42,424 nt of DNA, from positions 1 through 42,424 of IMG/VR virus record IMGVR_UViG_2563366953_000006; one strand, 5' to 3'. Position 1 is the stretch's first letter. Each line of letters begins with the position of its first letter. This document shows, in pieces, positions 1 to 41,671 of this stretch. The stretch is from a virus (lineage: Duplodnaviria > Heunggongvirae > Uroviricota > Caudoviricetes). Position numbers and translations under genes: made by a program. The notes below the pieces were generated by a model. It had not been told where the DNA came from and searched no databases. It saw only the letters and a list, made by a program, of their open reading frames with translations.

Positions 1-39
1 ATGGCACTCATGAATCTGGTATACTTACCGTTACACATT

Positions 40-402
40 GGGGCTGATTCTGGATTCGACGGGATTTGCGAAACCCAAGGTGCATGCCGAGGGGCGGTTG
101 GCCTCGTAAAAAGCCGCAAAAAATAGTCGCAAACGACGAAAACTACGCTTTAGCAGCTTAATAACCTGCTTAGAGCCCTCTCTCCCTAGCCTCCGCTCTT
201 AGGACGGGGATCAAGAGAGGTCAAACCCAAAAGAGATCGCGTGGAAGCCCTGCCTGGGGTTGAAGCGTTAAAACTTAATCAGGCTAGTTTGTTAGTGGCG
301 TGTCCGTCCGCAGCTGGCAAGCGAATGTAAAGACTGACTAAGCATGTAGTACCGAGGACGTAGGAATTTCGGACGCGGGTTCAACTCCCGCCAGCTCCAC
401 CA
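40..402 (+). ncRNA. ssrA: tmRNA (SsrA), complete, ending in CCA
   Basis: Begins GGGGCTGATTCTGGATTCGACGGG and ends GGGTTCAACTCCCGCCAGCTCCACCA; contains the tag-peptide coding stretch GCAAACGACGAAAACTACGCTTTAGCAGCTTAA. Recognised from memory of enterobacterial ssrA (363 nt). Confidence 0.93.
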
Positions 403-539
403 ATCATGATTGGACGGTGTAAGGACAACACCAACAAAAACAGGAAGTTAGCAGTCTCAGCAGGACACCGACCAGACGGTGATGAGACAAAAAAGGATAC
501 GCAAAGGAGCCGCGGCTCTCGAGTGACACAAAAGCCCGC
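372..539. repeat. Left copy of imperfect direct repeat (attL-like): 3' end of ssrA plus about 135 bp downstream
   Basis: Near-identical to 41489..41655; includes a 36-bp perfectly shared block GGGTTCAACTCCCGCCAGCTCCACCAATCATGATTG, with scattered mismatches elsewhere. Confidence 0.8.
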
Positions 540-560
540 TTATGCGGGCTTTTTGTTTTT
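531..560 (+). terminator. Rho-independent terminator downstream of ssrA
   Basis: Hairpin GCCCGC-TTAT-GCGGGC followed by TTTTTGTTTTT. Confidence 0.6.
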
Positions 561-636
561 CCCTTAAGTTCCTAGCCGCTTATCTATAACTATGGAAAAA
601 TGTTAACCCTGACTGTATGTTAACAAAGGGATGTAT

Positions 637-1845
637 ATGTCGGTTTTTCATAACTGGCTGCTTGATATCGCAAGCGGGAATTACTTTATCTACATCAAAC
701 GCCTTTCTGCAAACGACACAGGCGCAACAGGTGGCCATCAGGTCGGACTTTATATCCCCTCAAATATCGTTGAAAAGCTTTTTCCATCTATCAATCATAC
801 TCGCGAACTGAACCCTTCAGTCTTCCTTACTGCGCATGTATCATCCCATGATTGCCCTGATACCCAAGCACGCGCAATTTATTACAACAACCGTTATTTT
901 GGTAAGACCCGAAACGAAAAAAGAATTACGCGCTGGGGGAGAGGAAGTCCATTACAGAACCCTGAAAATACAGGAGCCCTGACAATTCTTGCCTTCAGGT
1001 TAAACGAACAGAACACTGACTGTTCCGAGGTAGATATATGGGTCTGCGTCAATCCCGATGAAGAGGATATCATCGAGTCTGCTATTGGCGAAATCATACC
1101 TGGAACCCTAATTTCCGGCCCTGCCGGACAAATTTTGGGCGGATTGTCTCTTCAGCAAACTCCAGTAAATCATAAATATGTTATTCCTGAAGACTGGAAG
1201 AAGCGTTTTCCTTCTGGAAACGAAATTATTCAATATGCTGCTGGCCATTATGCTAAAAACTCCAAGGATCCAGATGAGCAACTGATTGACCGTCGGCGTG
1301 TCGAGTATGATATTTTTCTACTCGTCGAGGAATTACATGTTCTTGATATTATTAAGAAAGGATTCGATTCTGTAGATGAGTTTATTGCATTAGCCAACTC
1401 TGTCAGTAATCGACGTAAATCAAGGGCAGGTAAATCACTTGAACTTCACCTAGAGAAGCTTTTTATCGAGCACGGACTACGGCATTTCTCCACTCAGGCA
1501 GTTACTGAAGGTAATAAAAAACCAGATTTCCTGTTTCCTTCAGCAGAGGCATATCATAACGTTGAATTTCCTGTAGAAAACTTACGTATGCTGGCAGTAA
1601 AGACCACCTGCAAAGATCGCTGGCGTCAGATACTGAATGAAGCAGATAAAATCCATCAGGTACATTTATTTACGCTGCAAGAAGGTGTTTCTTCAGCACA
1701 ATACCGAGAAATGAAAGATGCGGGTGTCAGACTCGTTGTACCATCAACTTTACATAAAAAATACCCAGAAGCAGTTAGAGAAGAATTAATAACGCTCGGA
1801 GCATTCATTACTGAGCTGATAGAACTTTACGCTGAACTATCATAG
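637..1845 (+). CDS. ecoRIIR: Type IIE restriction endonuclease, EcoRII-like (CCWGG)
   Basis: Protein MSVFHNWLLDIASGNYFIYIKRLSANDTGATGGHQVGLYIPS... is near-collinear with R.EcoRII as recalled (about 400 aa). Start taken at the second ATG (637), which has better spacing from the AGGGA Shine-Dalgarno; the ORF track starts at 631. Confidence 0.8.
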   Translation: MSVFHNWLLDIASGNYFIYIKRLSANDTGATGGHQVGLYIPSNIVEKLFPSINHTRELNPSVFLTAHVSSHDCPDTQARAIYYNNRYFGKTRNEKRITRWGRGSPLQNPENTGALTILAFRLNEQNTDCSEVDIWVCVNPDEEDIIESAIGEIIPGTLISGPAGQILGGLSLQQTPVNHKYVIPEDWKKRFPSGNEIIQYAAGHYAKNSKDPDEQLIDRRRVEYDIFLLVEELHVLDIIKKGFDSVDEFIALANSVSNRRKSRAGKSLELHLEKLFIEHGLRHFSTQAVTEGNKKPDFLFPSAEAYHNVEFPVENLRMLAVKTTCKDRWRQILNEADKIHQVHLFTLQEGVSSAQYREMKDAGVRLVVPSTLHKKYPEAVREELITLGAFITELIELYAELS

Positions 1846-1879
1846 GCTGACTCCCGGCTTAAAAGGCCGGGAGGTGTTC
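1846..1879. terminator. Bidirectional hairpin between convergent R and M genes
   Basis: CTCCCGGC-TTAAAA-GGCCGGGAG inverted repeat between the two stop codons. Confidence 0.5.
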
Positions 1880-3313
1880 TCAAGGCAGCCCAGTCTTACC
1901 AGCATCAGCAGAAACAGCTTTGAGGATATAGGGTTCCAGAAGTCTGGCAACGGCTTCAAATACTGGCACCACAACGGAGTTACCGAACTGCCGATATGAC
2001 TGAGTATCTGAAACCGGAATACGGAATGGTTTCCCTCCAGGTTTTTCAAACCCCATAAGGCGTGCGCACTCTCGGGGAGTCAGCCTGCGTGGTCGACGAG
2101 CCTGGTTACTCTCATTCATAAAGTCAGCCTCTCCCGTTGCCATATCCCAACCACGATCAATAAGAATTTCTGATCCGTCTTTGTGATATCTGGCAGAAAG
2201 TGTGCGTGCAATGCTTTCCTTATTCTCAGGATTGACCAACCCAAAGCCAAAACCATTCCCCTTGGCTGCATGCTTTTTGGCGTAGTTATAAAGGTACTCC
2301 CATAGTTTTGGCGTAAGTATATATTTACTGTCGACTACAGGCTCCAGCAATTCACCAAATGATGGGCGGTGTTCCGGATAAAAACGACTGATATCACGCA
2401 AGGTAAACCCCTTGTGAATATTCAGATCTCGTCTAAATCCGACCAGAACAATGCGTTCACGATGCTGAGGCAAAAAATGCTTCCCATCGATAATCTTTGG
2501 ATCGTTTTTTCCCATTTCTGCAGCATCGGCAACTTCGTAGCCCAGCTCGTCAAGGGTCTCCATAATGACTTTGAAAGTTTTACCCTTATCATGGCTCTTC
2601 AGATTTTTGACATTTTCCAGCACAAAAATTGCCGGTTTTTTTGCTCGTATAATACGTGCCACGTCAAAAAAAAGTGTTCCTTGTGCTTCACATTCAAAAC
2701 CATGCGCACGACCAAGTGAGTTTTTCTTACTAACACCAGCAAGGCTAAATGGCTGGCACGGGAACCCCGCAAGAAGCACATCATGATCCGGCACATGCTC
2801 ATCAATATATGCATAAGCATCCGTTTCCAATACATCGGTTTTATCACTCAGCGTGACTTCCCGAATATCGAGATTGAATTTATGCACCTGTTCATCGTTA
2901 AACCAGTTGGCCTTGTATGTACGCACAGCATCTTTATTCCATTCACTGGTAAAAACACACTGGCCTCCAATGGCCTCAAAACCTTTCCGTATCCCTCCAA
3001 TTCCAGCAAATAAGTCAATGAAGCGGAAAGCATATTCCGGATGGTTTGCAGGTGGTTCTGGTAGCATCTTACGCAGAAGAGACTCTTCTACTGAAGTCAA
3101 CGATTTTGGTAAACACTTGCCATTAATCCAGCGGTTAATGGTTTCACGGCTCCACTCATTTTTTCCGACTTTTCTCAGTAATTCAGCCACATACTTCTGA
3201 TCATAGATTTCCAGCACTTTCTCGATAAGCTTTTTATCATTTTCCTGTCGCAGCTTTTCTTCCGCCTCGGCTTCCTTCAGCAGATGCTGTGCCAACACTT
3301 CAAATTCAGACAT
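1880..3313 (-). CDS. ecoRIIM: DNA cytosine-5 methyltransferase, Dcm / M.EcoRII family
   Basis: Contains [17 protein letters not shown] (motif I), [11 protein letters not shown] (PC catalytic motif), ENVKNL and [10 protein letters not shown]; collinear with Dcm/M.EcoRII. Start placed at MSEFEV (3313), preceded by GGAGG; the ORF track extends to 3355. Confidence 0.88.
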
Positions 3314-3619
3314 AATTCCTCCAAGGGGTCTAATGGGTGAAACTCTATCACTCATTCAACCCAGAAGGAAATGTTTTATCTGGATATTTAAACAGTGACT
3401 ACAACGTAATCTAGCACTGGTGATGCTTTGTTAGGCATAGAGAATCATTCTATATACGACTAATGACAGAAAAACAGCAGACAAGTAGTTTGTTCATAAA
3501 TTAACGCATACTACGTGCCTACGGTTTTCGAGACCGGTCCAATCATCAAACGAAACATAAAATTAGCTCACATTATGAGGAAAGGTATCTTTTTGCGCTA
3601 TGTAAATTCAAAGGGTTAG

Positions 3620-4489
<870 letters not shown>

Positions 4490-4546
4490 GTCTTTAAGTG
4501 ATAAGCATAAACCGCAGCACGATCTTGCATACGACGTGCTACGGTT

Positions 4547-5101
4547 TCATTTATCTCCGACCGGAAACTTCTTATACAGTGTCGATATACCAACATCATA
4601 GATGATCGCCACCTTCTGGCGAGGAACGCCTGATGCAATTAATCGCCCGGCCTGCGCCCATTGTTCTGGTGTAAGTTTGGGACGACGTCCACCAATTCGT
4701 CCCTGTGCGCGAGCAGCTTCCAGTCCAGCTTTTGTTCGTTCAACAATCAGTTCTCGTTCCATTTCAGCCAGGGCACCCATCACATGAAAGAAAAAACGCC
4801 CCATCGGTGTGCTGGTATCAATAGCATCCGTCAGGCTGCGCAAATTAACGCCACGTTCGCGCAACTCCTCAACCAGAATGACCAGATGCCGCATGCTACG
4901 CCCTAGCCGATCCAGCTTCCAGACAACCAGAGTGTCACCTGCCGATAATGTCCTGAGCAGTTTTTTCAGTCCCGGCCTTTCGGACTTTGTACCGCTTATC
5001 TTGTCTTCAAAAATCAGCTCGCATCCTGCACAGTTCAGCGCATTACGTTGTAGATCTGTGTTCTGGTCATTTGTTGACACACGTACATAGCCAATAAGCA
5101 T
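4547..5101 (-). CDS. pin: Serine DNA invertase, Gin/Pin/Cin/Hin family
   Basis: MLIGYVRVSTNDQNTDLQ...LVVWKLDRLGRSMRHL...GRIGGRRPKL is a near match to e14 Pin / Mu Gin as recalled; lies next to an invertible tail-fibre segment. Start at MLIGY (5101). Confidence 0.9.
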   Translation of the reverse strand: MLIGYVRVSTNDQNTDLQRNALNCAGCELIFEDKISGTKSERPGLKKLLRTLSAGDTLVVWKLDRLGRSMRHLVILVEELRERGVNLRSLTDAIDTSTPMGRFFFHVMGALAEMERELIVERTKAGLEAARAQGRIGGRRPKLTPEQWAQAGRLIASGVPRQKVAIIYDVGISTLYKKFPVGDK

Positions 5102-5127
5102 GGTAGATCTCCCTGACAAAAGCAGGA

Positions 5128-5541
5128 ATGATGCCATTTGCTCGTTATTTCTGCATTTTCATAAACGTTGGTTTGGGAGAAGCGGCAAAACGGGATGTAG
5201 GAACAGGGGAAAATCAGATACCGGATATGGCTTCTTTTGCCAGTGGTGATGGATGGATGAAATTACCCAACGGTAAAATCCTGCAATATGGTCGAGGTGC
5301 GGTTACGCCGACATTATCGACGCAAACAATGAGAATTACATTCAGCATCCCTTTTCCTAAAAAAGTGGACTGCGCCATGCTTACTCATTCTGGTGATGGT
5401 GGTGCACCTTTAGGTGCTGGACGGGGATTCGTGATGACCGCAGAAGGTCCAACATTAACCGGTTTTAATTCCGCTTACAGAACTGCATCAACCAGTTCCA
5501 CAGTATCGATGAATTACAGTTGGTGGGCTGTTGGTGAGTAA
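5128..5541 (+). CDS. Alternate tail-fibre C-terminal cassette (Sv'-like), silent in this orientation
   Basis: The frame continues through the crossover site (NVGLGEAAKR) so that inversion would fuse it to the constant N-terminus of the tail fibre; it has no independent promoter or RBS context. Confidence 0.6.
   Translation: MMPFARYFCIFINVGLGEAAKRDVGTGENQIPDMASFASGDGWMKLPNGKILQYGRGAVTPTLSTQTMRITFSIPFPKKVDCAMLTHSGDGGAPLGAGRGFVMTAEGPTLTGFNSAYRTASTSSTVSMNYSWWAVGE
5157..5182. repeat. Invertase crossover site (gix/pix-like), left
   Basis: TTTTCATAAACGTTGGTTTGGGAGAA; its reverse complement matches the site at 7078..7103 over TTCTCCCAAACCAA-GTTT. Confidence 0.7.
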
Positions 5542-5552
5542 TTTTATTAAGG

Positions 5553-6005
5553 GTGATTTATATGAACGAATATGTTTATAGCGCAAGGCATAATGCTTTT
5601 TTCCCTGTGGATATGATTGATAAATATAAATCAGAGGGATGGGATTTATCAGATGCTAAAGAGGTGAATCAAAATATTATCAGTGAATTTATGGCTGAAC
5701 CGCCACAAGGAAAAATCCGTATTGCCGGAGGTGATGGGCAGCCCGCGTGGGCAGATATTCCTCCACCCACGCATGAAGAACTTATTGAAATTACTGAATC
5801 AGAAAGACAGCTACTAATTAACCAGGCCAACGAATACATGAACAGTAAGCAATGGCCCGGTAAAGCCGCTATTGGTCGTCTGAAAGGTGAGGAACTGGCG
5901 CAATATAATTTGTGGCTGGATTATCTGGATGCACTGGAGCTGGTTGATACCTCCAGTGCACCAGATATTGAATGGCCTACGCCTCCGGCAGTTCAGGCCA
6001 GATGA
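5553..6005 (+). CDS. Tail-fibre assembly protein (Tfa, U'-like), alternate
   Basis: C-terminus LWLDYLDALELVDTSSAPDIEWP is the Tfa-family signature; sits inside the invertible segment on the opposite strand to its partner. Confidence 0.75.
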   Translation: MIYMNEYVYSARHNAFFPVDMIDKYKSEGWDLSDAKEVNQNIISEFMAEPPQGKIRIAGGDGQPAWADIPPPTHEELIEITESERQLLINQANEYMNSKQWPGKAAIGRLKGEELAQYNLWLDYLDALELVDTSSAPDIEWPTPPAVQAR

Positions 6006-6579
6006 CATCCGGCGCGGTGCTGGTATCTGTTGCCGTCACCGCGTCAATGTAATCCAGCACAGCGTTAAGGCTGGTTGTTTCTGCCTGCGTCAGTTTACGT
6101 CCGGCCTGCAATTTCAGCTGAATCAGACTGATTGAAGCCATTGCAGTATTAATCAGTGACTGGCGCTGTGCTTCTGCTACATCTACTGCGGCGCTATGCT
6201 GTGCTTCGGTATCCGTCACCCATTTCTCACCATCCCATTTATCGTATGGCGTTAACGGGGCGATAGTGGTTGTATTATCAGGGTAATCACCCGGAGCTGT
6301 GATTTCTTTTGATTCTCCTGTTTCGGTGCTATATACCGTTTCACCGCGATGATCTGGCACATATTCCCATGAGTTAAAATCTGCAGAACGGCAAATTGCA
6401 TAACCAGCTTTATATGAGCCAGGAGCATCTAAACAGGAACATGCCGGAATACCGACGCCAACCGCAAGATATTCAGTTGATGTGGAAATATATTCCCGCG
6501 TTTCACCATCATAATTATAAATAGTAATGTCTCCCGCTTTTATGGCAATGAGTTCGTTATTTAATACGGCTTTATTCAT
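5977..6579 (-). CDS. Tail-fibre assembly protein (Tfa, U-like), expressed orientation
   Basis: C-terminus AVLDYIDAVTATDTSTAPDVIWPELP (Tfa family); immediately downstream of the tail-fibre gene. Confidence 0.8.
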   Translation of the reverse strand: MNKAVLNNELIAIKAGDITIYNYDGETREYISTSTEYLAVGVGIPACSCLDAPGSYKAGYAICRSADFNSWEYVPDHRGETVYSTETGESKEITAPGDYPDNTTTIAPLTPYDKWDGEKWVTDTEAQHSAAVDVAEAQRQSLINTAMASISLIQLKLQAGRKLTQAETTSLNAVLDYIDAVTATDTSTAPDVIWPELPEA

Positions 6580-7379
6580 CAGGCAGCCCTCACGATATAA
6601 TTAAAGGCAATGTTACGAGGACGGTTTTCGTTTGCAGTTGGAACAATTCTTGAAGCATCAAGGCCAATCACTTTTGGGTAAACACCGCCCTCGGACCTTT
6701 CTGTCACCATACTTCTGACTAAGGAGAAATAACTATTGTTCGTTGAGGGGTTCAAAGGCACTACTGCCCCCTTAAACGAGCCTACTGATTCCCATATTGA
6801 ATAATTTTCGGTGTTTACAGTCTTGAACTCACCATAGATATTACGTATGGCATCGCCCTGAGCTGATAATATTGCCCTCCCCGTATCCATACCACGTCCG
6901 TCATCCCAGCCACGAATAAACTCACCACGTAAATCAGGCAATTTATTTGTCGGATAAGCCTTTGCCAGTTCCGGGTATTCTTCAGCAGAAAAAGCCGCGC
7001 CGTTGCATTTCAGCCAGCCTGTTGGCGGAGTGGCGGAAGGCCATGGAACAGGGACACCAACGGGTAATGCAGAGCCTTCTCCCAAACCAAGGTTTTCGAG
7101 AGCCGTTTTCACCGTGCCATCCGATTTGATATCGCTAAACGGATTCTTGCGGCTTAACAGCAGCGCACGAAGCGCGGTAAGCAGCTGGTCATGCCGCCCC
7201 TTCTCCAGGCTGGCACCGGATGCCTCCACAACGCTGCAAAGCTCCTCCTGCAACATGTCAAAGTAGTCATCATCCAGATCGGTGGCAGGCGTGCCGGTCT
7301 GGGGGTTACCACGGGTAAAACCGTTCTTACCCGCGCCGAACTTATCCTTCTGCGCGGTTTTCGTGTCTATACGATGCAT
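6579..7379 (-). CDS. Tail fibre protein (constant N-terminal part plus variable collar-type C-terminus, S-like)
   Basis: Lies between the DUF2313 baseplate gene and Tfa; C-terminal region [24 protein letters not shown] resembles the phage tail-collar domain; the crossover site is at codons ~93-100. Confidence 0.8.
7078..7103. repeat. Invertase crossover site (gix/pix-like), right, inside the tail-fibre gene
   Basis: TTCTCCCAAACCAAGGTTTTCGAGAG, inverted relative to 5157..5182; both sites encode the peptide GLGE in their respective reading frames. Confidence 0.7.
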
Positions 7380-11055: not shown

Positions 11056-12380
11056 TGCACTGGCACCTTCAGAGGGATCACCGGCACAAAGCCGGGATGC
11101 GTAATGGCATTACGCCGGATAATGTCCGCGTCACGCGCCGCGTTATCAAACCAGGTCGCCGCCAGCACCAGCGCGGGTAAAACCTCATCCGGCGTGCGCT
11201 GAATGATCCGTGCAGACTGTTCAAGGCGCGTGTTGATATCCGCATTCAGATCTGCTTTCACCCGGCGCAGCGCCAGAAACAGCGCATCACTGGTTGTACG
11301 GGACAACTCCTTATCAATTGCCGTATTCAGTGTGTCGCGAATGTCGGTCAGTTCTTCCCACGTTGGCAGGTCAACCGTGTTTTTCACCGCCGGTGCATTG
11401 TTCAGTGCCGGATGCGTGACAGAAGGCCAGCCGGTGCTCTGCGCGGGTGTTGTTGACTGCCCTACTGTGGCATTCTGCATCACCGCGGAAGTTGTGGGCG
11501 CAGGCAATCGTGTGACGGCATACGCCGCTTCGCTGATTGCGGTCGTACGAAGGGTGCTGGCAACCACGTTACGCTGCTGCGTCGCCGTGGCGGTAGTTTT
11601 ACTGTCCGTTTTCCAGACGCCGCGCGGTTGCAGATCGCTGCCGAGGCTGACACCGGAAAGCGTTTTGATCATGGTGACCAGGTCGCTGGCGTTACCATAA
11701 AGGCGTTTCCCGGTACGCCACATTTTCTGCACCTGCTCAACGAAATTTTTGCCTGACGATGGTGGCGGCAGAAGTACCGAGATATCCCCCTGCAACAGCC
11801 TGGCGGCATCCGATACGGCAGAATCCACCACTTTCATCGCATCAGAAACATACCCAAGCATTGTGCTGGCATTACCGACGACGTCGTTCTGCACAAAATC
11901 TGCCACGCCATCGATACTGAAACCACTGAAGCTGTCACTGATGCAGTCATCCAGTGCAGAACAGGATGACATCAGCGTCTGCGCCGTCGCCGCACCTGAA
12001 GTGGGGTAAGAGAGTTCTCCCGCTTCGACAAACTTCAGGTCAAAGCGGACAATACGCCCTTCACTCTTCGATGTGCTGACCCGAACTTCCCCGTCAACAC
12101 AGACTTTCAGCTCACCGTAAGTCGGATGGACAAGCGTGCCGGGACCGGGTTTATTCAGCGCGTCAATCAGGCGATCGCGCTGGTCAAAGCAGTCATCTCC
12201 CACCACATAAGCTGTGATGGACGGGCGGAAAGTGATTTTCCCCAGGTCTTCGGTATAGGGTTTGTCGCGGTTCGGGTATTCGTGCGTTTCCACACGACGA
12301 CCGATTCCCGCACTTTCTTCTTCAACCTTAAACGGCACACCGCGAAATGACGCGTCCTGAAGTCTGTCTTTCCACGTCAT
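11052..12380 (-). CDS. DNA circularisation protein N-like (Mu gp43-like), tail-associated
   Basis: N-terminus MTWKDRLQDASFRGVPF is typical of the Mu N family; start placed at 12380 (GGAG 7 nt upstream) rather than the track start 12422, which falls inside a hairpin. Confidence 0.65.
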   Translation of the reverse strand: MTWKDRLQDASFRGVPFKVEEESAGIGRRVETHEYPNRDKPYTEDLGKITFRPSITAYVVGDDCFDQRDRLIDALNKPGPGTLVHPTYGELKVCVDGEVRVSTSKSEGRIVRFDLKFVEAGELSYPTSGAATAQTLMSSCSALDDCISDSFSGFSIDGVADFVQNDVVGNASTMLGYVSDAMKVVDSAVSDAARLLQGDISVLLPPPSSGKNFVEQVQKMWRTGKRLYGNASDLVTMIKTLSGVSLGSDLQPRGVWKTDSKTTATATQQRNVVASTLRTTAISEAAYAVTRLPAPTTSAVMQNATVGQSTTPAQSTGWPSVTHPALNNAPAVKNTVDLPTWEELTDIRDTLNTAIDKELSRTTSDALFLALRRVKADLNADINTRLEQSARIIQRTPDEVLPALVLAATWFDNAARDADIIRRNAITHPGFVPVIPLKVPVQ

Positions 12381-15043: not shown

Positions 15044-16539
15044 TATGCAGACTCCTCTGAATACTGAAGACGGAACTGGTTAACCACGGCAAAGACACGC
15101 AACTGGTTAACATAGTCAGGCGGGAACAGCGTGTTCAGGCGGTTCGGATCGCTGGCATCACGCTCCACAACCAGGTACTGCTTAAACAGTTCGTAGTTTT
15201 CCACGATCCCCGCACGCTCAAGCTGACGGTAGGTTGCCAGCAGTTCCCCTTTGATCACCGCCGGTGTGACAATCGCCTGACCGGGACCAAAGCGGGTACC
15301 GTCGCTGGCAAGCTTGTGACGCCCGTACTTACTGGTAATGACGGATTTCAGTTTGCGCAGTACATACGCGCTGGTATGCAGCGTCTCGCTGTCGAGGTAG
15401 CTGTTATCCGCAACACCGTAAGCGTTTTTCCTGTACGTGGTGACATCACGCTGAATGCGCAGCACCCCGCTTTCGACATACGCCGTTGCCACGCCATGAG
15501 ACAGCAGGGTCTGTTGTTCGGTCATCGTGAACCGTTTCCCCTTCGGCGCAGGCAGCATACCCACCAGTTCACCGGTCTGCGTGGGACGTGCCGGATCGTT
15601 GCGAATAAACACCGCTGCGCGGGCGGTACGGCTTGCCGCCAGCTCGTCGGCAGGCGTCTGGGTCTCTTTTTCGTATCCCGCCAGGGTAATGTGCTGCTGG
15701 TTAAACTGGTCACCTGCGGTCACCAGTTCTGACAGCGTGCCGATCTTTGCCGTATACACATGACCATACAGCTGACGCGCATAGCTCCAGCGACCGCTGG
15801 TATCGTTCATCTCGGTCACCAGCGTGTTAACGGAGGCCGTGTCGTTGAACGGCAGGCCAATATAATCAAACGGCTCATCCGCCATTGCAGCCACCGCACC
15901 GGTGAGAACCGGAGCGCCCGTTCCGGCGCTCCCCGTCGCCACGGCAATCTGTACGCCCGCTGGCAGCACTTCGCCCCCACCAAAGCCGTAGTAATTGAGG
16001 CTGACAGGAATTTCATTCCCGCAAAGCCCCTTATGACGCGCGGTCAGTGTGACCACGCCAGCCGAAGATGAGGCAGTAAACGGCAGGGTCGGAACGGCAT
16101 TGATGGCATCCTGGATACTGCTGGCAATCGTCGCGACGTTATCGCCGTTGGTCACCGGTGCCTGCACGCGGGTACGTCCCACATAAACATTCACCGTGCC
16201 GGTTTCGGTTGCCGCGCCGGTCACCGTCAGCGTAACCGTTGCCGCCGCGCCTGTGGATTCAGGAACGGCAATCACATACAGCTCGCCAAACGGGTCAGTC
16301 TGGCGATAAGCCTCGACCATACGCGCCAGCTGACTTCCCGCACCACAAATCTGGCGTGCATAGTCTGCCGACGGCATCAGTACCAGACTGTTGGCAACAA
16401 TCTCTGCACCGTTATTCGCATGACCAATCAGCAGCGATGCTCCGCTGTCCTGTGCAGTATTCGCCGCCGAGTTATCCATTTCCGCATAAAACAACGGAAC
16501 CAGCGTATTCGACGGAATGGTGTTAAAGCTTATCGTCAT
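15043..16539 (-). CDS. Contractile tail sheath protein (Mu L / gp39-like)
   Basis: 498 aa, followed by tube and chaperone genes in the standard order. Confidence 0.8.
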   Translation of the reverse strand: MTISFNTIPSNTLVPLFYAEMDNSAANTAQDSGASLLIGHANNGAEIVANSLVLMPSADYARQICGAGSQLARMVEAYRQTDPFGELYVIAVPESTGAAATVTLTVTGAATETGTVNVYVGRTRVQAPVTNGDNVATIASSIQDAINAVPTLPFTASSSAGVVTLTARHKGLCGNEIPVSLNYYGFGGGEVLPAGVQIAVATGSAGTGAPVLTGAVAAMADEPFDYIGLPFNDTASVNTLVTEMNDTSGRWSYARQLYGHVYTAKIGTLSELVTAGDQFNQQHITLAGYEKETQTPADELAASRTARAAVFIRNDPARPTQTGELVGMLPAPKGKRFTMTEQQTLLSHGVATAYVESGVLRIQRDVTTYRKNAYGVADNSYLDSETLHTSAYVLRKLKSVITSKYGRHKLASDGTRFGPGQAIVTPAVIKGELLATYRQLERAGIVENYELFKQYLVVERDASDPNRLNTLFPPDYVNQLRVFAVVNQFRLQYSEESA

Positions 16540-27192: not shown

Positions 27193-28134
27193 ATGAGTAC
27201 AGAAAATAAGAATAAAACCAGGCGAGTGAGAGTTGGTTTTTTCACTGGTAATGGAAGCAAAAAAGATGGCACATCTGCTGCAAAACTAGCCTTTGAGCAA
27301 ATGACCACAGCAGATACTGTAACTTTTCCAATAACTTACACAACAGACACCCCAAATCGAGGGTTAAAGTTAGTTATTCTTCAAAAAGATACCACACTGC
27401 AATGTTACTTTGGTTACGTATCGTGGAGAAGGGAATGCCTACTACCGTTCATCGAGGATGCTACAGGTAGTGAGAGAACAATTCCTTTAAATGATAAAGA
27501 TTCTGTAGTTGAAAGAACATATTTTATCTATTACTACGAAACGGACTTATTAGCTATGACCCTCAACCATATAGGGCCCAAAGTAAATGATCTGGCATTC
27601 ATTTTGTATAACAAAACTGATTTAAAAAGCGTCACTTTTGAAGCCATTTGGAAACAAGAGAGCATGAAGGAACTGCTTGAGGACGGAAATATCCTACGTA
27701 GTTTCGATCTTATAGTTGCTGCTCCAAGAAACTTTAACAAAGCTAATTATAAGATTAAAAACCCTTTAGCTAATGAAATTATTGACATGGTTGTTGGTAT
27801 GGGCGGGTCGCATCTAAGATTAAATATGCGAGGTCGGATTCGCCCGAAAAAACAAGGGTTTAACTATCTAAAAACTTCTGTCACCGATGCTATTAAGGAA
27901 CTACTTGAACTTTTTCCAAAAGGTTCTGGAGGTCTAAAAATTAAAAAAATTGATGTAACAGAGCCATCCAATAGAACGCCCAAAAGTCTACTTGACCAAG
28001 TATTGGTCAGTACAAAGACAATCATTGTCAAAAGCGGTTATCCATCCGATTCTGATATCAGAACGGCGATGATATCTGCTAAAATTGATAACGCGAACTA
28101 TCTTGCACAGTATGAGCTCGCTAGCAGAGACTAA
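27193..28134 (+). CDS. Hypothetical 313-aa soluble protein, first gene of an AT-rich two-gene cassette (candidate defence/abortive-infection sensor)
   Basis: ORF on the strand opposite to all late genes, in the Q-to-lysis moron position; no Walker A motif and no recognised domain; followed 9 bp later by a 4-TM protein gene. Confidence 0.65.
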   Translation: MSTENKNKTRRVRVGFFTGNGSKKDGTSAAKLAFEQMTTADTVTFPITYTTDTPNRGLKLVILQKDTTLQCYFGYVSWRRECLLPFIEDATGSERTIPLNDKDSVVERTYFIYYYETDLLAMTLNHIGPKVNDLAFILYNKTDLKSVTFEAIWKQESMKELLEDGNILRSFDLIVAAPRNFNKANYKIKNPLANEIIDMVVGMGGSHLRLNMRGRIRPKKQGFNYLKTSVTDAIKELLELFPKGSGGLKIKKIDVTEPSNRTPKSLLDQVLVSTKTIIVKSGYPSDSDIRTAMISAKIDNANYLAQYELASRD

Positions 28135-28155
28135 TAACCAAGCATGGAGGACACA

Positions 28156-28605
28156 ATGAGAGAATTAGCCACTTTTCTCTGGAAATGCGTCCTCTGGATT
28201 CTGTTGACCTATGCAGCGACAAAACTGTTTAAACCGATGAAGCATGCTGACGTACTCACAACAGCGGGGGTGCTCTCGACTATATCAGGCATCCTGTTTG
28301 GTTTTGTTCTGGCTGCAATATCTATATTTAGTAGTGCAAACAGCGATAAGGAAGGAGCAATTAATGCCCTTAAGCAAAACAACGTGTTACCAACTCTGGT
28401 AAATAGATTACTTTCAACAGGGTTAACTCTCATCGTCGCATGTATATTTCCATTGATAGCGATGTTTCTACCTGATGATGTTATTGTTGCGGGCAAACCT
28501 ATTGATTTCCTGTTCATACTGTTAGGCTTATCCTCCCTTATAATTTCGCTATATACCTTCGGAAGGTGTTGGTTAGTGTTACGAAAAATCTTCCCCCACT
28601 TGTGA
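28156..28605 (+). CDS. Small polytopic membrane protein (4 predicted TM helices), second gene of the cassette (candidate membrane effector)
   Basis: Four hydrophobic stretches (res ~8-27, 38-62, 88-108, 120-146 of the 153-aa track ORF); start placed at MRELATF (28156), preceded by GGAGG; track start is 28144. Confidence 0.65.
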   Translation: MRELATFLWKCVLWILLTYAATKLFKPMKHADVLTTAGVLSTISGILFGFVLAAISIFSSANSDKEGAINALKQNNVLPTLVNRLLSTGLTLIVACIFPLIAMFLPDDVIVAGKPIDFLFILLGLSSLIISLYTFGRCWLVLRKIFPHL

Positions 28606-31227: not shown

Positions 31228-31550
31228 GCTTTCAGGCCTCTCTCATGTAACCAGTGGGTTGCACGCAGCCTTGCGTTTTCCTCACCGGCAAGCAGTGAGC
31301 GGATAATCCCGACCGCCTCGCTGTCGTCGTCCTTCACCGCGGTATGAAGCGTTATCCCCCGGGCCACGCCACGCTTTATCGTGATGACGCCTTTTTTCTC
31401 CAGTGCGCGAAGATGCTCCACCGCTGCATTCACTGAACGGTATCCCAGCATGGTTGCCACCTCCTGATTGGTTGGCGGGAAGCCACGTTCTTTCTGGTAA
31501 GAAATCAGCATATCCAGCACCTGCTGCTGGCATTGAGTTAATGTCGTCAT
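31224..31550 (-). CDS. LexA-type winged-helix DNA-binding protein lacking the peptidase domain
   Basis: LTQCQQQVLDMLISYQKERGFPPTNQEVATMLGYRSVNAAVEHLRALEKKGVITIKRGVARGI aligns with the LexA N-terminal domain; the protein ends after ~108 aa. Confidence 0.65.
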   Translation of the reverse strand: MTTLTQCQQQVLDMLISYQKERGFPPTNQEVATMLGYRSVNAAVEHLRALEKKGVITIKRGVARGITLHTAVKDDDSEAVGIIRSLLAGEENARLRATHWLHERGLKA

Positions 31551-32200
31551 GCCGCCATCTCCCTGACCAGTTTTTCTGCCTGCTGGCGAACCTGCGCCAG
31601 AAACGCCTCACCACATGCCTCAAGTTCATCGCGCCCGATGTAGCTGATTGCCGGTCCCTTCCAGGTCTTGTCGAAAACAGCAATAGCACCAGCGAAGAAA
31701 GCGCCTGTCGGCACCTGCTTCTCATCTTTCGGGATAAACCAGGCAGGCAGTTCAAAACCAATACGCCCGCGAATAAAAGCAATATGATCTGCATCTTCCG
31801 GCCACCACACTTCGCTGGTGGCAGCTTTGATCAGGAAAACATAGCGCCCGCCTTTATCACGCATGGCACTGGCATGTTTCATGATGTAACGCATGCCGGT
31901 GATGTATTGCCCCTCATGCTGACTGGCGCGGCTGTATGGGGGATTACCAAAGGCAGCACCTTTAAGCTCCGCAAGACGTTCTGACCAGTCATGCGCCAGC
32001 GCATTGTCTTCCGCCGTGTAATACGCGGTACATTTGGCGTTATCACCGTCAGTAAACAGATCCAGAACAAACGGGCCAAACAGAGTGTTAATTCCCCAGA
32101 AAATGTTATCCGGCGTGCGCCACTGATCGCCCACTTCCTTCAGTTCATGGGCTGGTTTGTTCCGTAGTTCCACCAGCGCCTGGCAATATTTATTACTCAT
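31547..32200 (-). CDS. Phage DNA N6-adenine methyltransferase (orphan, Dam-like)
   Basis: GNPPY motif (AFGNPPYSRAS); start placed at MSNKYCQ where TAATG overlaps the upstream stop; track start is 32233. Confidence 0.75.
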   Translation of the reverse strand: MSNKYCQALVELRNKPAHELKEVGDQWRTPDNIFWGINTLFGPFVLDLFTDGDNAKCTAYYTAEDNALAHDWSERLAELKGAAFGNPPYSRASQHEGQYITGMRYIMKHASAMRDKGGRYVFLIKAATSEVWWPEDADHIAFIRGRIGFELPAWFIPKDEKQVPTGAFFAGAIAVFDKTWKGPAISYIGRDELEACGEAFLAQVRQQAEKLVREMAA

Positions 32201-32694
32201 TAAGCCCCCACGTAATTCCCTGACAGATACCACTCATCACCCGATACAGCGCGCTTGCTGCTTTTCCGTAAACACTGCTCACGACGCGCCAGAAAATTGT
32301 TTCGTTCTGGCTGGGAGTGGCTTTCACGGAATGCCGCCATCCACACCGTTGCAGCACGACGGTATAAGCCCCTGGACTCCAGTTCTTCAGCCTGGCGGGT
32401 CAGGCACAAAATCACCCGGGGGTCGTTAGTGCCGACATAGAAATTGCGCACAGCTCTGGTTTCACGAACAGATTGTGGTTCCGGCTCCTGCGCTCTCTCA
32501 GTCAGGCGCGGGAAATGTCTGCGTGTATCTCCTTCACAACGGTGAGCCACACGCCCACTCTGACGTAACTTGCTTGCTGACTGCAGAACGCGCTGCCGTG
32601 AGTAACCAGCAAAAGCATCCGCAATGTCTCCGGAAGTACACCCCGGATGGGCTTCAATGAATTTCTGAACTTCATTCAAAAGACTCATAATCAC
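32200..32694 (-). CDS. Hypothetical protein, possibly PerC-like regulator
   Basis: 164 aa, translationally coupled to both neighbours; weak recalled resemblance to PerC family (ELESRGLYRRAATVW). Confidence 0.35.
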   Translation of the reverse strand: MIMSLLNEVQKFIEAHPGCTSGDIADAFAGYSRQRVLQSASKLRQSGRVAHRCEGDTRRHFPRLTERAQEPEPQSVRETRAVRNFYVGTNDPRVILCLTRQAEELESRGLYRRAATVWMAAFRESHSQPERNNFLARREQCLRKSSKRAVSGDEWYLSGNYVGA

Positions 32695-33632
32695 CCCCTG
32701 AATCCTGCCGGGATCTGGCTGTAGTCCACGTTGTCGTAACTGGCTTTGAAGTACGGGTCTTCGCGTTTTTCTGTGTGCGTGCTGACGGACGGCGATAAGC
32801 GCAGGGAAAGCTCATCCCATTTTTCCCGCAACTTCGACGGGCTGAGCACGTTACGGCACCAGAACGGATCGCGGCTGACGCGGCTGTACATCTCGCAGAT
32901 TTGTTTGTGAGTACGACCATCCTGCACACACATCAGGCGAATTTCGTTTGCCCAGGCTGTCCAGTTAGGTTCTTTGGGACGAACCACCTCGCCGTCACAT
33001 TCGGCGGCCTGCTCGTACAGGGCGATGATTTTTTTCCAGAGCCACTGTGCGCAGGTCAAATCATCCTGCGTTCCCCACTGGCGCTTTTTAGGGCTGAATA
33101 CAACCGCATCAGGATGGCGAGTTAAAAAATCCTGTTCATCCGTCTGCGTGTCCGGTTGCGAAGCGTCCGGACGAGAAGTTTTTTTATCTGATGGATCATG
33201 TTTTGATTTTACTGACGGATCCCCGCCAGATTCTGACGGGTGAAAACCCGCTTTTTTGCCAGATTTCGACGCATCAAATTTTGACGGGTCAGATTTTGAT
33301 GCGTCAGATTTTGACGGGTCAGAATCTGACAGTTGAGAAAATGCCGCTGCCTGAAGCTTCGCAACGTTAAGCTGATAAACATTCGACGCATTGCGGTTAC
33401 CCTGGCGACGCGCCTTACGCGTTAACCAGCCTTCTGCTTCCAGCCGTGCGATAGCCGTTCTGACGGTACTCATCCCCGCGCCAATCTGGCGTGCAATGGT
33501 TTCAATTGATGGCCAGCACACACCTTCGTCATTACTGAAATCAGCCAGGCGGGCCATAATTGCCACGCTGGATAACTTCATGCCTGACGCAGCGCAACCA
33601 TCCCATACATAGCCGGTTAATTTAGTGCTCAT
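32691..33632 (-). CDS. Replication initiator (O-like), N-terminal HTH with internal low-complexity repeat encoded by iterons
   Basis: N-terminal HTH-like region WPSIETIARQIGAGMSTVRTAIARLEAEGWLTR; central SDSDPSKSDASKSDPSKFDASKS repeat coincides with DNA direct repeats. Confidence 0.65.
   Translation of the reverse strand: MSTKLTGYVWDGCAASGMKLSSVAIMARLADFSNDEGVCWPSIETIARQIGAGMSTVRTAIARLEAEGWLTRKARRQGNRNASNVYQLNVAKLQAAAFSQLSDSDPSKSDASKSDPSKFDASKSGKKAGFHPSESGGDPSVKSKHDPSDKKTSRPDASQPDTQTDEQDFLTRHPDAVVFSPKKRQWGTQDDLTCAQWLWKKIIALYEQAAECDGEVVRPKEPNWTAWANEIRLMCVQDGRTHKQICEMYSRVSRDPFWCRNVLSPSKLREKWDELSLRLSPSVSTHTEKREDPYFKASYDNVDYSQIPAGFRG
33200..33335. repeat. Iteron-like direct repeats (candidate replication origin) inside the initiator gene
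   Basis: Repeated units of the form GATTTTGACGGGTCAGA / GATTTTGATGCGTCAGA, at least 4-6 copies. Confidence 0.6.
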
Positions 33633-39293: not shown

Positions 39294-39500
39294 ATGCTGA
39301 ACCTCGATTGTGTTCCAATCTCAACTTATTGCAAAGAAACTGGCGAAACTCCTGAAGCAATAAACAAACGTGTACAGCGCGGTGTTTGGCGTGAAGGTGT
39401 TCAGGTTTTAAAGGTTGAAGGCGTTAAGGAGAGGTGGATTGATCTTAGTGAGGTTGCAAAATGGGCCAGACAAAACTGCTCAAACTACCGCGCGGCGTAA
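39294..39500 (+). CDS. Excisionase-like protein (Xis)
   Basis: 68-aa protein immediately upstream of and overlapping the integrase; the EAINKRVQRGVWREGVQ segment resembles lambda Xis ETVRRWVRE; GGAG RBS. Confidence 0.5.
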   Translation: MLNLDCVPISTYCKETGETPEAINKRVQRGVWREGVQVLKVEGVKERWIDLSEVAKWARQNCSNYRAA

Positions 39501-40674: not shown

Positions 40675-41454
40675 TTGATTACAATTACATTCGACAAACT
40701 AATCACCTACATATCTTCAGTTGGTACTTTCATTTCAGCAATTGCTGCATTATATGCAATATGGTTAACGATATTTCAAAGAAGGCTCTCTTATAAACCC
40801 AATTTAGTGATAGACACTTTAAATGTCAAGATGAATGTTAACGATTTCAACGGTTTTCATGTTGATATCTTACAAGCCCCTACGCTTCCACAAACAAAAT
40901 TTTCAAACATAGGATTGGGGGCGGCAATTTCACTTAGATATCATTGGGATTTTAATTATAAAAAAAACATAAATCTATACTTAGAGTTGTTTTCGAAAAA
41001 ATTCAAAAAAGAAGATAAATCTTTTACAACCGACTCCCAGTATGGAATGTTCAAAATAATAAAAGAAAGAAAAGTATATATGTACAATACTTTATCGACA
41101 CCTTACGATATTGATTTTTCGTTACCATATAGTATAGATAAGAAGTCAAAAAACATTTTTGTACCAACCGCGGCAATTGATATTCTATTGAATATAGCAT
41201 ATCTTTCACATAGACTTAAATTAGTCGGTTCTTCATCATTCACTGGTCCAAAATTAATTATTGAATATCAAGATATAGAGGGTAAAACTAAAAAAGTCAC
41301 TTGGCAAACAAAATTGGAACGTGGAGTGGCACGTTTCAGTGGTGATAATATGGAGGCAGATTTTGCACTACGGTTTACACCTGTACCAGAGAAATGGACT
41401 ACAAAAGGTCTAGAGAAGATACGCAAAAGCGCCGCAAACGCCATGTTCAGATAA
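40675..41454 (+). CDS. AT-rich cargo gene: hypothetical 259-aa protein with N-terminal TM anchor
   Basis: Lies between int and the right repeat; very AT-rich; apparent TTG start; N-terminal hydrophobic helix ITYISSVGTFISAIAALYAIWLTIF; no recognised domain. Confidence 0.5.
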   Translation: MITITFDKLITYISSVGTFISAIAALYAIWLTIFQRRLSYKPNLVIDTLNVKMNVNDFNGFHVDILQAPTLPQTKFSNIGLGAAISLRYHWDFNYKKNINLYLELFSKKFKKEDKSFTTDSQYGMFKIIKERKVYMYNTLSTPYDIDFSLPYSIDKKSKNIFVPTAAIDILLNIAYLSHRLKLVGSSSFTGPKLIIEYQDIEGKTKKVTWQTKLERGVARFSGDNMEADFALRFTPVPEKWTTKGLEKIRKSAANAMFR

Positions 41455-41488
41455 ATATATAATTAAAACAACAGGTTAATATTTTTCA

Positions 41489-41655: not shown

Positions 41656-41671
41656 AGATGTGCAATGCCGT

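Follow-up and report, generated by a model that had tools for sequence, protein, structure and literature searches.

Described Relatives of the Locus

The closest described relative of the locus is the EcoRII restriction-modification (R-M) system of enterobacterial plasmids (PDB 1NA6/3HQF/3HQG; M.EcoRII), in which the genes for an endonuclease of 404 aa (R) and a methyltransferase of 477 aa (M) are convergent and separated by a spacer of ~33–34 nt containing a hairpin. The pair described here, located in a 42,424-nt stretch of viral DNA that was analyzed in full (the window), has the same gene order, spacer hairpin and protein lengths. The proteins align with their plasmid counterparts without gaps, and the two systems share the functional residues, the methyltransferase motifs, the hairpin stem and the region upstream of M. 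The two differ in sequence (79.6% nucleotide identity; 86–87% amino acid identity for R and 91% for M, with saturated synonymous divergence) and in their carriers: plasmid EcoRII resides on conjugative plasmids, whereas the present pair is found on chromosomal prophages and satellites of E. coli, and the DNA beyond window positions 569–3395 is unrelated. The pair is intact and relates to classic EcoRII in an ordinary way.

A second relative is the chromosomal Dcm-Vsr system of E. coli. Dcm belongs to the same NCBIfam subfamily as M (NF007772) and has the same expected CCWGG target; it is expected to protect against R, and dcm-vsr to supply Vsr repair in trans. In contrast to Dcm, with which it shares just 66% identity (K-12 protein), M has an endonuclease as its partner, lacks an overlapping vsr and lies on a mobile element. 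A precedent for an EcoRII-family R-M system on a temperate phage is the EcoRII-C/Vsr/methylase module of Burkholderia phage KL3. However, KL3 gp45 matches just the C-terminal domain (residues 171–397, 39% identity), and the module includes vsr, has its three genes on one strand and belongs to a P2-like phage of a different host. Outside the R-M system proper, the next gene encodes essentially the same protein as PD-T4-3/CMoRE (PDB 9U75, 9U7U).

The position of these genes recalls the moron or b-region slots of lambdoid phages, where the cargo is likewise low in G+C, situated between attP and the tail fibers, and variable among relatives. The slot may be compared with the lambda b region and the P2/P4 defense hotspots; there is no difference of substance from either, and the prophage cargo exemplifies a known pattern.

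The Prophage and Its Accessory Slot

The window holds a complete E. coli prophage of 41.1 kb, delimited on both sides by copies of the ssrA 3′ end (152-nt repeat). Its landmarks are as follows.

40–402, + strand: ssrA (tmRNA) gene, intact, the integration target (ARAGORN, tag ANDENYALAA; Rfam RF00023, 292.8 bits, model 1–374/374)
367–518, + strand: attL, the ssrA 3′ end plus 116 nt downstream (direct repeat; LLS alignment)
530–553, + strand: intrinsic terminator with a 10-bp stem and T-run, between ssrA/attL and the R gene (terminator scan; dG −22.3 kcal/mol, z −5.4)
4547–5137, − strand: Pin-type serine invertase, start of the tail-fiber module (Pfam Resolvase + HTH_7; RefSeq pinE)
39461–40633, + strand: prophage tyrosine integrase, far end of the element (Pfam Arm-DNA-bind_2 + Phage_integrase; PHROG 1; RefSeq)
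41484–41635, + strand: attR, the duplicated ssrA 3′ end (tmRNA pseudogene) plus flank (direct repeat)

The two copies of the att repeat are 95% identical over their 152 nt, and a perfectly identical stretch of ~37 nt at 376–413 is the likely crossover core. For the 99% identical strain R12, RefSeq annotates a full complement of phage genes (integrase, regulation, replication, lysis, head and tail). Phage LLS, an isolated relative whose annotated attP/tmRNA pseudogene aligns with attL, shows the same order of int, hypothetical gene, attP, cargo, invertase and tail fiber, with other genes as the cargo. Homology to LLS spans 364–554, the terminator at 530–553 being the last common element. The R-M pair therefore lies inside the att repeats in an accessory slot between attP and the tail fibers, which confirms its earlier description as prophage cargo at the ssrA junction. 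The G+C content of the cargo is 43%, as opposed to 51% in the remaining prophage. A count of CCWGG sites, which the first-pass annotation had proposed as a check, gave 90 in the prophage (~80 expected; median spacing 336 bp) and 93 in the whole window (76 ± 8 expected). Avoidance of the site by the prophage was rejected, as both counts exceed expectation. Among non-coding RNA families, Rfam found tmRNA alone near the R-M system.

The Endonuclease and the Methyltransferase

Between the terminator and the CMoRE gene, the R-M cassette consists of five elements.

569–630, + strand: R upstream region, presumed R promoter (TATAAC..ATGGAAAAATG, AAGGG Shine-Dalgarno)
631–1845, + strand: R gene, 404-aa type IIE restriction endonuclease of the EcoRII family (Pfam; 1NA6 alignment; PADLOC REase_II, 775 bits)
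1851–1873, no strand assigned: G+C-rich hairpin between R and M (34-nt spacer), presumed to terminate in both directions, no U-tract
1880–3313, − strand: M gene, 477-aa C5-cytosine methyltransferase of the M.EcoRII type; DNA_meth_N repressor-type domain at the N terminus
3314–3395, − strand: M promoter/operator-like region, right end of the R-M cassette (contains CCAGA-N13-TCTGG)

The R gene has an alternative start at 637, which is the one chosen in RefSeq. Its product combines an N-terminal B3-like effector domain with a C-terminal PD-(D/E)XK catalytic domain, and Pfam places EcoRII-N (PF09217) at residues 18–165 (E = 4e-61) and EcoRII-C (PF09019) at residues 229–393 (E = 2e-71). It matches R.EcoRII over residues 1–403 (PDB 1na6; E = 3e-243) as well as the separate domain chains 3hqf and 3hqg, and the gapless alignment to 1NA6 shows 86.1% identity with 56 substitutions. 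When the functional residues of R.EcoRII (Golovenko et al., 2009; PMC2770665) were compared, 28 of the 28 catalytic, recognition and base-flipping residues checked were found to be kept. These include the active site (E271/D299/K324/E337, at the same positions), the residues recognizing the CC:GG half-site (K328-D329-R330 and N260) and the pocket for the flipped base (R222/E225/Y226/F229/R265/A266), together with the effector-domain contacts to CCWGG (N28/H36/Q37/Y85/R94/E96/R98) and to phosphates (Y41/R81/K92/T93/T100/R101). R is accordingly EcoRII-like, and it is predicted to cleave unmethylated CCWGG, to need at least two sites and to be blocked by 5mC at the inner C. In principle, the 56 substitutions could alter activity or allostery despite the intact functional residues.

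For M, the longer open reading frame extends from 1880 to 3355 on the − strand (491 aa). The start at 3313, the end coordinate of the first-pass annotation, is better than this ORF end: it is an ATG with GGAGG upstream, yields the 477 aa of M.EcoRII and is the RefSeq start in strain R12. The protein contains DNA_meth_N (PF18284, E = 7e-27) and DNA_methylase (PF00145, E = 5e-78) domains, scores 927 bits against the NF007772 model of the Dcm/M.EcoRII subfamily (cut-off 710) and aligns without gaps to plasmid M.EcoRII at 90.6% identity, in agreement with the near-collinearity noted at first for both proteins. Identical alleles of the two proteins are WP_000110239 and WP_001288444. The methyltransferase motifs FAGIG (102), PCQ (185–187, with Cys186), ENV (233), QHRER (283), RECA (414) and GNS (444) are all present. 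In C5-methyltransferases, the target-recognition domain is located between motifs VIII and IX. Over this interval (residues 290–410), M differs little from its plasmid counterpart (pN 0.042, dN/dS 0.011), and its expected target, judged from the sequence, is the inner C of CCWGG. The earlier assignment of the system to the CCWGG type is supported by this nearly unchanged segment and by the published specificity and catalytic residues of R.EcoRII, all of which R has kept; inactivating mutations were found neither in the active site of the endonuclease nor in the methyltransferase motifs.

Spacer Hairpin and Regulatory DNA

The convergent R and M genes are separated by a 34-nt spacer with the hairpin CTCCCGGC/GCCGGGAG, whose folding energy on the two strands is −22.8 and −21.5 kcal/mol (z −2.5 and −2.8). 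The stem is kept in a plasmid EcoRII system (pACN001-A), although the flanks differ. The first-pass annotation had described a hairpin terminator shared by two convergent genes. The gene arrangement and the hairpin stand, but the hairpin has no U-tract and was missed by the consensus terminator scan, so its function as a terminator is presumed.

Upstream of R, homology to plasmid EcoRII begins at 569, with 42 of 63 positions identical downstream of this point and ~41% identity further upstream; the segment 569–630 is presumed to be the R promoter. On the other side, ~80 nt upstream of the M ATG are kept, identity then falls to ~42%, and plasmid homology stops at 3395. The consensus scan called no promoter upstream of R or M. 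A controller (C) protein was rejected as there is no small HTH ORF between or beside the two genes. Likewise, a transposon-like insertion of the cassette was rejected, no direct or inverted repeats of at least 9 nt flanking 569–3395.

The Neighboring CMoRE Gene and the Block Boundary

Two further elements complete the cargo.

3716–4489, + strand: PD-T4-3/CMoRE, GIY-YIG type IV restriction endonuclease for 5hmC and glucosyl-5hmC DNA, second defense gene of the block
4509–4547, no strand assigned: hairpin downstream of CMoRE, right boundary of the common block, window 1–4547 (dG −20.9 kcal/mol, z −3.5)

The gene product matches PADLOC PDLC04031 over positions 1–256 of 256 (E = 2e-140), is nearly identical to PDB 9u75 (E = 4e-172) and ~98% identical to the O157:H7 enzyme. 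Its translation reads GWYVYRL...FYVGKG...ATDDDELL, in which the GIYxY-YIG motif (Y17/Y19/Y31) and the acidic loop are present, the motif being used as it is defined for CMoRE in PMC12923530. Since the gene adjacent to the R-M pair is PD-T4-3/CMoRE, the cargo is a two-system defense block, and the pair and CMoRE form a small phage-defense cargo of known kinds. The first-pass annotation ended one gene short and overlooked CMoRE. According to the CMoRE paper, the enzyme neither binds nor cuts 5mC DNA; it is thus compatible with the expected 5mC product of M, a substrate compatibility counted among the support for the preferred explanation given below. The text of that paper makes no mention of prophage, neighboring genes or genomic context.

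Window positions 1–4547 are ~99% identical among genomes with different downstream prophage backbones, and homology breakpoints fall at 4547 in three of the compared sequences (L009, L010 and L011). CMoRE occurs in 838 genomes, as opposed to 262 for R, and prophage remnants in O157 and O6 retain CMoRE-pin while the R-M pair is absent.

Distribution, Carriers and Divergence

Of 5426 complete E. coli genomes, 262 (263 records; ~5%) carry the R gene at ≥99% identity. In just 131 of the 262 carriers is R contiguous with an intact ssrA, and the ssrA junction is therefore not a fixed property of the cassette. The cassette was found on mobile elements only. R occurs on several phage backbones and, without CMoRE, on one sampled P4-like satellite, where the R-M pair lies downstream of a P4-like primase. 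Strain 0H25 has a CP4-57-like island in front of the prophage; the block there has remained with the prophage and is not adjacent to ssrA. A circular phage genome of 43.7 kb, deposited as a “plasmid” (NZ_CP081794; L003), carries the block together with an integrase that differs from that of the window. A further “plasmid” of 30 kb (NZ_CP104634) was considered as an episomal phage form and rejected, as it contains the chromosomal genes ecp, pao and ykgM and is probably a chromosomal fragment.

Approximately 34 viral contigs in IMG/VR carry R at 99–100% identity, and IMG/VR proviruses include the block. A search of 50,697 phage records yielded neither a virion sequence in which a phage of the window's type carries the block nor a cultured phage with a close full-length EcoRII, the matches being just the KL3 EcoRII-C and two metagenomic fragments at ~40%. 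A literature search for ssrA-associated or prophage EcoRII in E. coli returned nothing specific. Compared with plasmid EcoRII, R has a dN/dS of 0.046 and M one of 0.034, at a dS of ~1.7; the R-M pair is a separate old lineage under purifying selection.

Dcm, Vsr and the Value of the Pair to a Lysogen

As had been stated for the adjacent DNA, vsr is missing, and a tblastn search of the entire window yielded no Vsr homolog (best E = 0.13), so that a vsr gene in or near the R-M system was rejected. Across the family, the EcoRII-proper clade lacks vsr, and the gene adjoins M in 38 of the 51 more distant relatives. Its lack is thus normal for this clade and no peculiarity of the ssrA locus, and the distribution suggests that the EcoRII-proper clade relies on the dcm-vsr of the host.

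Of the 5426 E. coli genomes, 5368 (98.9%) have dcm-vsr, and Vsr would therefore be supplied in trans and addiction blunted. The first-pass annotation had pointed out that lysogeny would deliver methylation along with restriction. The pair is indeed prophage cargo, but methylation by M would be largely redundant in the ~99% of E. coli that already have dcm-vsr. Furthermore, most coliphages grown on Dcm-positive E. coli are already methylated at CCWGG, and the practical defense range of the R-M pair may consequently be narrow.

Weighing the Explanations

The best explanation, to which a probability of about 85% is assigned, is that the pair is a functional CCWGG-specific EcoRII-family type IIE R-M system carried as accessory cargo in the attP/tail-fiber slot of an ssrA-integrated temperate phage. 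Type II R-M systems including EcoRII kill the host upon their loss (reviewed in PMC3874152), and a pair serving chiefly as an addiction (post-segregational killing) module that stabilizes the prophage, not as a defense against incoming DNA, would also fit the confinement of the cassette to mobile elements. Such a role is improbable, since a solitary Dcm lessens the host killing that follows the loss of EcoRII (PMC3874152) and, with dcm-vsr as frequent as it is, addiction would be effective in very few hosts; moreover, the pairing of the cassette with a dedicated anti-phage nuclease fits a defense role. A different specificity (e.g., CCNGG, like SsoII/Ecl18kI), or an inactive endonuclease leaving an effectively orphan methyltransferase, is hardly credible. 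The 56 amino acid differences from R.EcoRII and the fold shared with the distant relatives Ecl18kI and PspGI would allow for either, but these relatives match R at just E ~1e-4 (3e-243 for EcoRII), the central T:A readout residues of the effector domain (N28, Q37, Y85 and R98) are unchanged, as is every C-domain residue of the pocket, of recognition and of catalysis, and R is under strong purifying selection and ≥99% conserved in 263 records.

It is highly improbable that the R-M(-CMoRE) block is no phage cargo and instead a separate small islet resident at ssrA, with different phages integrating beside it. The window contains just two att copies, which enclose the block and the whole phage; a third copy between CMoRE and pin, which would make the block an islet in the window, was sought and not found. 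While the near identity of 1–4547 across different downstream backbones, its sharp breakpoint and the imperfect att-like direct repeats flanking the block in circular L003 are what an islet would produce, L003 is itself a circular phage genome containing the block, the block adjoins the phage and not ssrA in strain 0H25, phage LLS shows that the slot belongs to the packaged genome, and the IMG/VR proviruses include the block.

Proposed Mechanism and Significance

For this locus, the analysis shows that the genes are intact, that the residues are conserved, where the pair lies and how it is distributed, and that selection on it is purifying; the specificity, expression, regulation and defense phenotype of the R-M pair are predictions, as follows. 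M would use Cys186 to methylate the inner cytosine of CCWGG at C5, with SAM as the methyl donor, while its N-terminal DNA-binding domain probably represses M's own conserved promoter, an autoregulation presumed from the EcoRII literature. R would form an autoinhibited dimer whose N-terminal B3-like effector domains must first bind additional unmethylated CCWGG sites, upon which the C-terminal PD-(D/E)XK domains would cleave both strands, with the central A:T pair flipped out. Lysogens would thereby restrict, through the R-M pair, incoming DNA without CCWGG methylation, such as that of dcm-negative donors or under-methylated lytic phages. The hydroxymethylated or glucosylated cytosines of T-even-type phages are reported (PMC12923530) to evade R-M systems, and these phages would be covered by CMoRE. 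As nearly every E. coli host has Dcm and Vsr, the phage would enter new hosts without self-restriction and would not have to carry a vsr gene itself.

The textbook plasmid enzyme EcoRII thus has an old sister lineage on temperate phages of E. coli and on one sampled P4-like satellite. On the prophages sampled here, a type IV nuclease for hypermodified cytosine usually accompanies the R-M system, and one block would therefore cover both unmodified and T-even-type DNA. The locus also offers a natural case for asking what an R-M system gains when nearly every host has an isospecific orphan methyltransferase (Dcm). Current concepts are unchanged; the practical value lies in annotation, in the prediction of host range for phage therapy and in cloning with dcm-negative DNA.

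Possible Mobility of the Block

It is conceivable, if unlikely, that the block at ~375–4547 is a discrete integrase-less cassette and moves between temperate-phage backbones via recombination at tmRNA-3′-like att sites, not by ordinary mosaic homologous exchange. Such movement would resemble the accretion of cis-mobilizable elements. Mobility is suggested by three findings: at least three different backbones, which between them have two different integrases, carry the block at ~99% identity; two imperfect direct repeats of ~90–150 nt, each composed of a hairpin, T-arm-like sequence and CCACCAATCATGATTGG, flank it in NZ_CP081794; and its right breakpoint elsewhere, at 4547, is the exact start of the T-loop-like sequence in those repeats.

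Identity and specificity of the enzymes

The EcoRII-like restriction-modification pair that the first-pass annotation had placed at 631-3313 is real and correctly positioned. The features of this region are:

40-402, intact ssrA (tmRNA) gene; ARAGORN, and Rfam RF00023 (292.8 bits, full model)
631-1845, + strand, EcoRII-family restriction endonuclease (R), 404 aa; Pfam EcoRII-N and EcoRII-C
3355 or 3313 to 1880, - strand, C5-methyltransferase (M), convergent with R; Pfam DNA_meth_N and DNA_methylase
34-nt spacer between the stop codons of R and M, hairpin CTCCCGGC/GCCGGGAG
3716-4489, + strand, PD-T4-3/CMoRE; matched end to end by PADLOC PD-T4-3 (E 2e-140)

For M, 3313, the end coordinate of the first-pass annotation, is a better start than 3355: it is an ATG with GGAGG ahead, its product of 477 aa equals M.EcoRII in length, and it is the RefSeq choice in a genome that is 99.8% identical. 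In a phmmer search of PDB sequences, R matches R.EcoRII (1na6) over residues 1-403 (E 3e-243) and also the N and C domains that were crystallised separately, while Ecl18kI and PspGI, its CCNGG and CCWGG relatives, are matched only at E ~1e-4. The alignment with R.EcoRII is gapless at 86.1% identity (effector domain 84.9%, catalytic domain 87.0%). The plasmid reference comes from pACN001-A, in which R shares 98.8% identity with crystallised EcoRII; M aligns with the M of this plasmid gaplessly at 90.6% identity and with K-12 Dcm at only 66%.

In EcoRII, the active site comprises E271, D299, K324 and E337, the CC:GG readers are K328, D329, R330 and N260, and the flipped central bases are held in a pocket of R222, E225, Y226, F229, R265 and A266 (Golovenko et al., 2009, PMC2770665). 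Base and phosphate contacts of the effector domain are made by N28, H36, Q37, Y41, R81, Y85, K92, T93, R94, E96, R98, T100 and R101 (PMC2770665). All 28 functional residues (these sets and Y308) are unchanged in R. M retains motifs I, IV (PCQ, Cys186), VI, VIII, IX and X and scores 927 bits against the NCBIfam Dcm/M.EcoRII subfamily (cut-off 710). Inactivating catalytic changes, a concern of the first-pass annotation, were found in neither gene. C5-methyltransferases have their target-recognition domain in the stretch that separates motif VIII from motif IX, and in M this stretch is almost invariant relative to the plasmid enzyme (pN 0.042, dN/dS 0.011). Since it is nearly invariant and the functional residues of R are unchanged, we strongly infer CCWGG specificity for both enzymes.

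Relatives and the absence of vsr

Compared with the plasmid genes, dS is ~1.7, with synonymous sites saturated, and the dN/dS values are 0.046 (R) and 0.034 (M); the pair is an old lineage under purifying selection. Chromosomal R at least 99% identical occurs in 263 E. coli records, which come from 262 of 5426 complete genomes, and the plasmid type (~80% identical) in hundreds of enterobacterial plasmids. Scanning a single genome from each species gave 282 relatives of R, the closest outside E. coli being at most 88% identical. The system is common, RefSeq and PADLOC already label it in generic terms, and nothing about its mechanism is surprising.

Gene layout and vsr were surveyed in the best 80 of the 282 relatives (L012-L091). 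Among these, 29 loci have an R at least 73% identical. No vsr was found at any of the 29, and 28 show the convergent R-to-M layout; the remaining one is a fragment of 540 nt, from which no layout can be read. A vsr homologue lies beside M at 38 loci, in every one of which R is at most 71% identical. The lack of an adjacent vsr pointed out by the first-pass annotation is thus normal for EcoRII proper, and the distribution suggests that this clade may have lost vsr in hosts providing dcm-vsr. One relative, in Rouxiella silvae (L046, NZ_MRWD01000055.1, 909-5217; R 66% identical, accompanied by vsr and M), has a tmRNA gene at a distance of ~750 nt and is an independent example, from a different genus, of an EcoRII-type system next to ssrA.

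Carriage by a prophage at ssrA

The assignment of the pair to prophage cargo at the ssrA junction is borne out by a 152-nt direct repeat (367-518 and 41484-41635, 95% identical) that encloses 41.1 kb. The repeat consists of the final 36 nt of ssrA and 116 nt downstream, and aligns with the annotated attP/tmRNA pseudogene of coliphage LLS, an isolated phage with the same layout but unrelated cargo. The annotation of the near-identical E. coli strain R12 describes the interior as a complete prophage, in the order R, M, GIY-YIG protein, pin invertase, tail fibres, Mu-like baseplate/tail, HK97-type head, terminase, lysis genes, Q, replication genes, cI/cro and integrase. On the circular phage genome the tail fibres are therefore followed by cargo, attP, a 259-aa ORF and int, which presumably makes the cargo position equivalent, by analogy, to the lambda b region. 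The cargo has a G+C content of 43% vs 51% in the remaining prophage.

Carriage by phage of the block, that is the pair together with CMoRE, is further supported by three observations on sequence records. The block is part of a circular phage genome of 43.7 kb that was submitted as a plasmid (L003, NZ_CP081794.1); in strain 0H25 it stays with the prophage behind a CP4-57-like island, not directly at ssrA; and ~34 IMG/VR viral contigs carry R at 99-100% identity. Among the IMG/VR loci listed, R starts exactly 630 nt from the contig end in eight, as in the window. No close full-length EcoRII was found among 50,697 deposited phage genomes, and the literature yielded a single phage precedent, the EcoRII-C/Vsr/methylase module of Burkholderia phage KL3.

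A second defence system in the cargo

The first-pass annotation missed CMoRE; the cargo is a two-system defence block. The product of 3716-4489 is ~98% identical to the sequence of the E. coli O157:H7 CMoRE structure 9u75 (E 4e-172) and shows the Y17/Y19/Y31 'GIYxY-YIG' motif and an acidic loop. CMoRE has been characterised as a type IV endonuclease of the GIY-YIG class; it degrades DNA containing 5hmC or glucosyl-5hmC and neither binds nor cuts 5mC or unmodified DNA (PMC12923530), and is therefore compatible with M-type methylation. Its targets are the T-even phages, in which hmC or glucosyl-hmC replaces cytosine and resists restriction-modification systems (PMC12923530). PD-T4-3 is protective in its native host too.

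CMoRE occurs in 838 genomes and in none of the best 80 relative loci of R. In O157 and O6 prophage remnants it is found with pin and tail fibres, without the pair, and homology to the window begins at 3519; the cassette 569-3395, containing the pair only, was thus added separately and lies between att flank and CMoRE module.

Non-coding DNA of the cassette

Homology to the plasmid system spans 569-3395 (79.6%), and no repeats flanking this cassette were found. As described in the first-pass annotation, the genes converge on a hairpin (-22.8 kcal/mol on one strand and -21.5 on the other; z -2.5 and -2.8), whose stem is kept in the plasmid EcoRII system with diverged flanks. It has no U-tract and received no call from the consensus terminator scan, so the plausible role as shared terminator is one we only infer. 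Upstream of M, conservation with plasmid EcoRII extends for some 80 nt from the start codon and takes in CCAGA-N13-TCTGG; beyond this stretch similarity drops to background (~42%). Autogenous repression by M.EcoRII has been reviewed recently (PMC12707154), and the conserved upstream region and DNA_meth_N domain would fit such control.

Host background and proposed mechanism

Nearly all complete E. coli genomes, 5368 of 5426, already possess the host locus dcm-vsr. By established EcoRII/Dcm biology, new lysogens would be protected beforehand by Dcm, so that delayed R expression would be unneeded, and Vsr repair of 5mC deamination would come in trans. Post-segregational killing would be blunted, and restriction would be limited to DNA entering unmethylated or under-methylated at CCWGG. 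Delivery of restriction and methylation by lysogeny, as first proposed, needs qualifying: Dcm makes the methylation largely redundant. The site count suggested at first pass gave 90 CCWGG sites in the prophage (median spacing 336 bp) with no avoidance; unmethylated, this DNA would offer a multi-site enzyme an excellent substrate. The earlier reading is supported overall, with corrections on Dcm redundancy, clade-typical vsr absence and the two-system block.

The standard EcoRII mechanism is the best-supported one for the pair on present comparisons. M would place a methyl group on the inner C of CCWGG, and the R dimer would remain autoinhibited unless its effector domains engage additional unmethylated sites, whereupon the catalytic domains would flip the central pair and then cut. 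CMoRE would add a second layer against hypermodified phages.

Contexts and mobility of the block

R is contiguous with intact ssrA in 131 genomes, half of the carriers. At the sampled ssrA loci, window 1-4547 is common at ~99% and the backbone downstream of 4547 differs, with either lambda-type stf/tfa or pin and a Mu-like tail. In strain DS26-1 (L093, NZ_CP035879.1, 6007-8683), the pair is at least 99% identical, lacks CMoRE and follows the primase-helicase gene of a P4-like satellite that also has Icd-like and ash genes; in this one strain, the satellite is a second kind of mobile carrier for the pair. A 30-kb 'plasmid' with the block is probably a chromosomal pao/ecp fragment.

In L003, which has a different integrase, the block lies between imperfect direct repeats (11424-11580 and 15586-15745, ~70% over ~160 nt), each consisting of the hairpin ACCGCAGC..GCTGCGGT, tmRNA T-arm-like sequence and CCACCAATCATGATTGG. 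Window 4509-4547 keeps only the hairpin half and abuts the pin stop codon. These repeats and the window remnant may be a trace of att-site accretion. The att-like pair and the sharp breakpoint at 4547, the only thread here with some novelty, hint at movement of the block as a cassette through recombination between att sites, which we nevertheless consider unlikely.

Insertion sequences break the block in some carriers (IS3 family in strain F8, IS1A in two pig isolates). The F8 element (L010, 7555-8783) has entered the spacer between M and CMoRE, near window 3673; this spacer therefore tolerates insertions.

Other features of the prophage

Past attR, window 41636-42424 diverges from R12, which runs on into glaH, and ends in a truncated DDE transposase ORF (41672-42424, PF01609). 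The 259-aa ORF between integrase and attP (40675-41454, +) belongs to PHROG 7259, of unknown function, and had no Pfam, NCBIfam or PADLOC match; the unannotated gene 31 of LLS holds the matching position. Two opposite-strand ORFs between the lysis cassette and Q (27193-28134 and 28144-28605, +; 39% G+C at 27-28 kb) had no Pfam or PADLOC match and hit only PHROGs 7651 and 8552, of unknown function; they occupy a typical moron position and may be further cargo. A phage Dam-type N6-adenine methyltransferase is encoded at 31547-32233 (-; PF05869, E 1e-45), so lysogens carry two phage-borne methyltransferases. Tandem repeats at 33260-33334 (15-nt period, CAGATTTTGACGNGT-like), inside ORF 32691-33632, look like replication-origin iterons. 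Within 4547-6600, the tail-fibre segments after pin match R12 in both orientations (L001, 24780-26634), consistent with an invertible host-range segment in different states.
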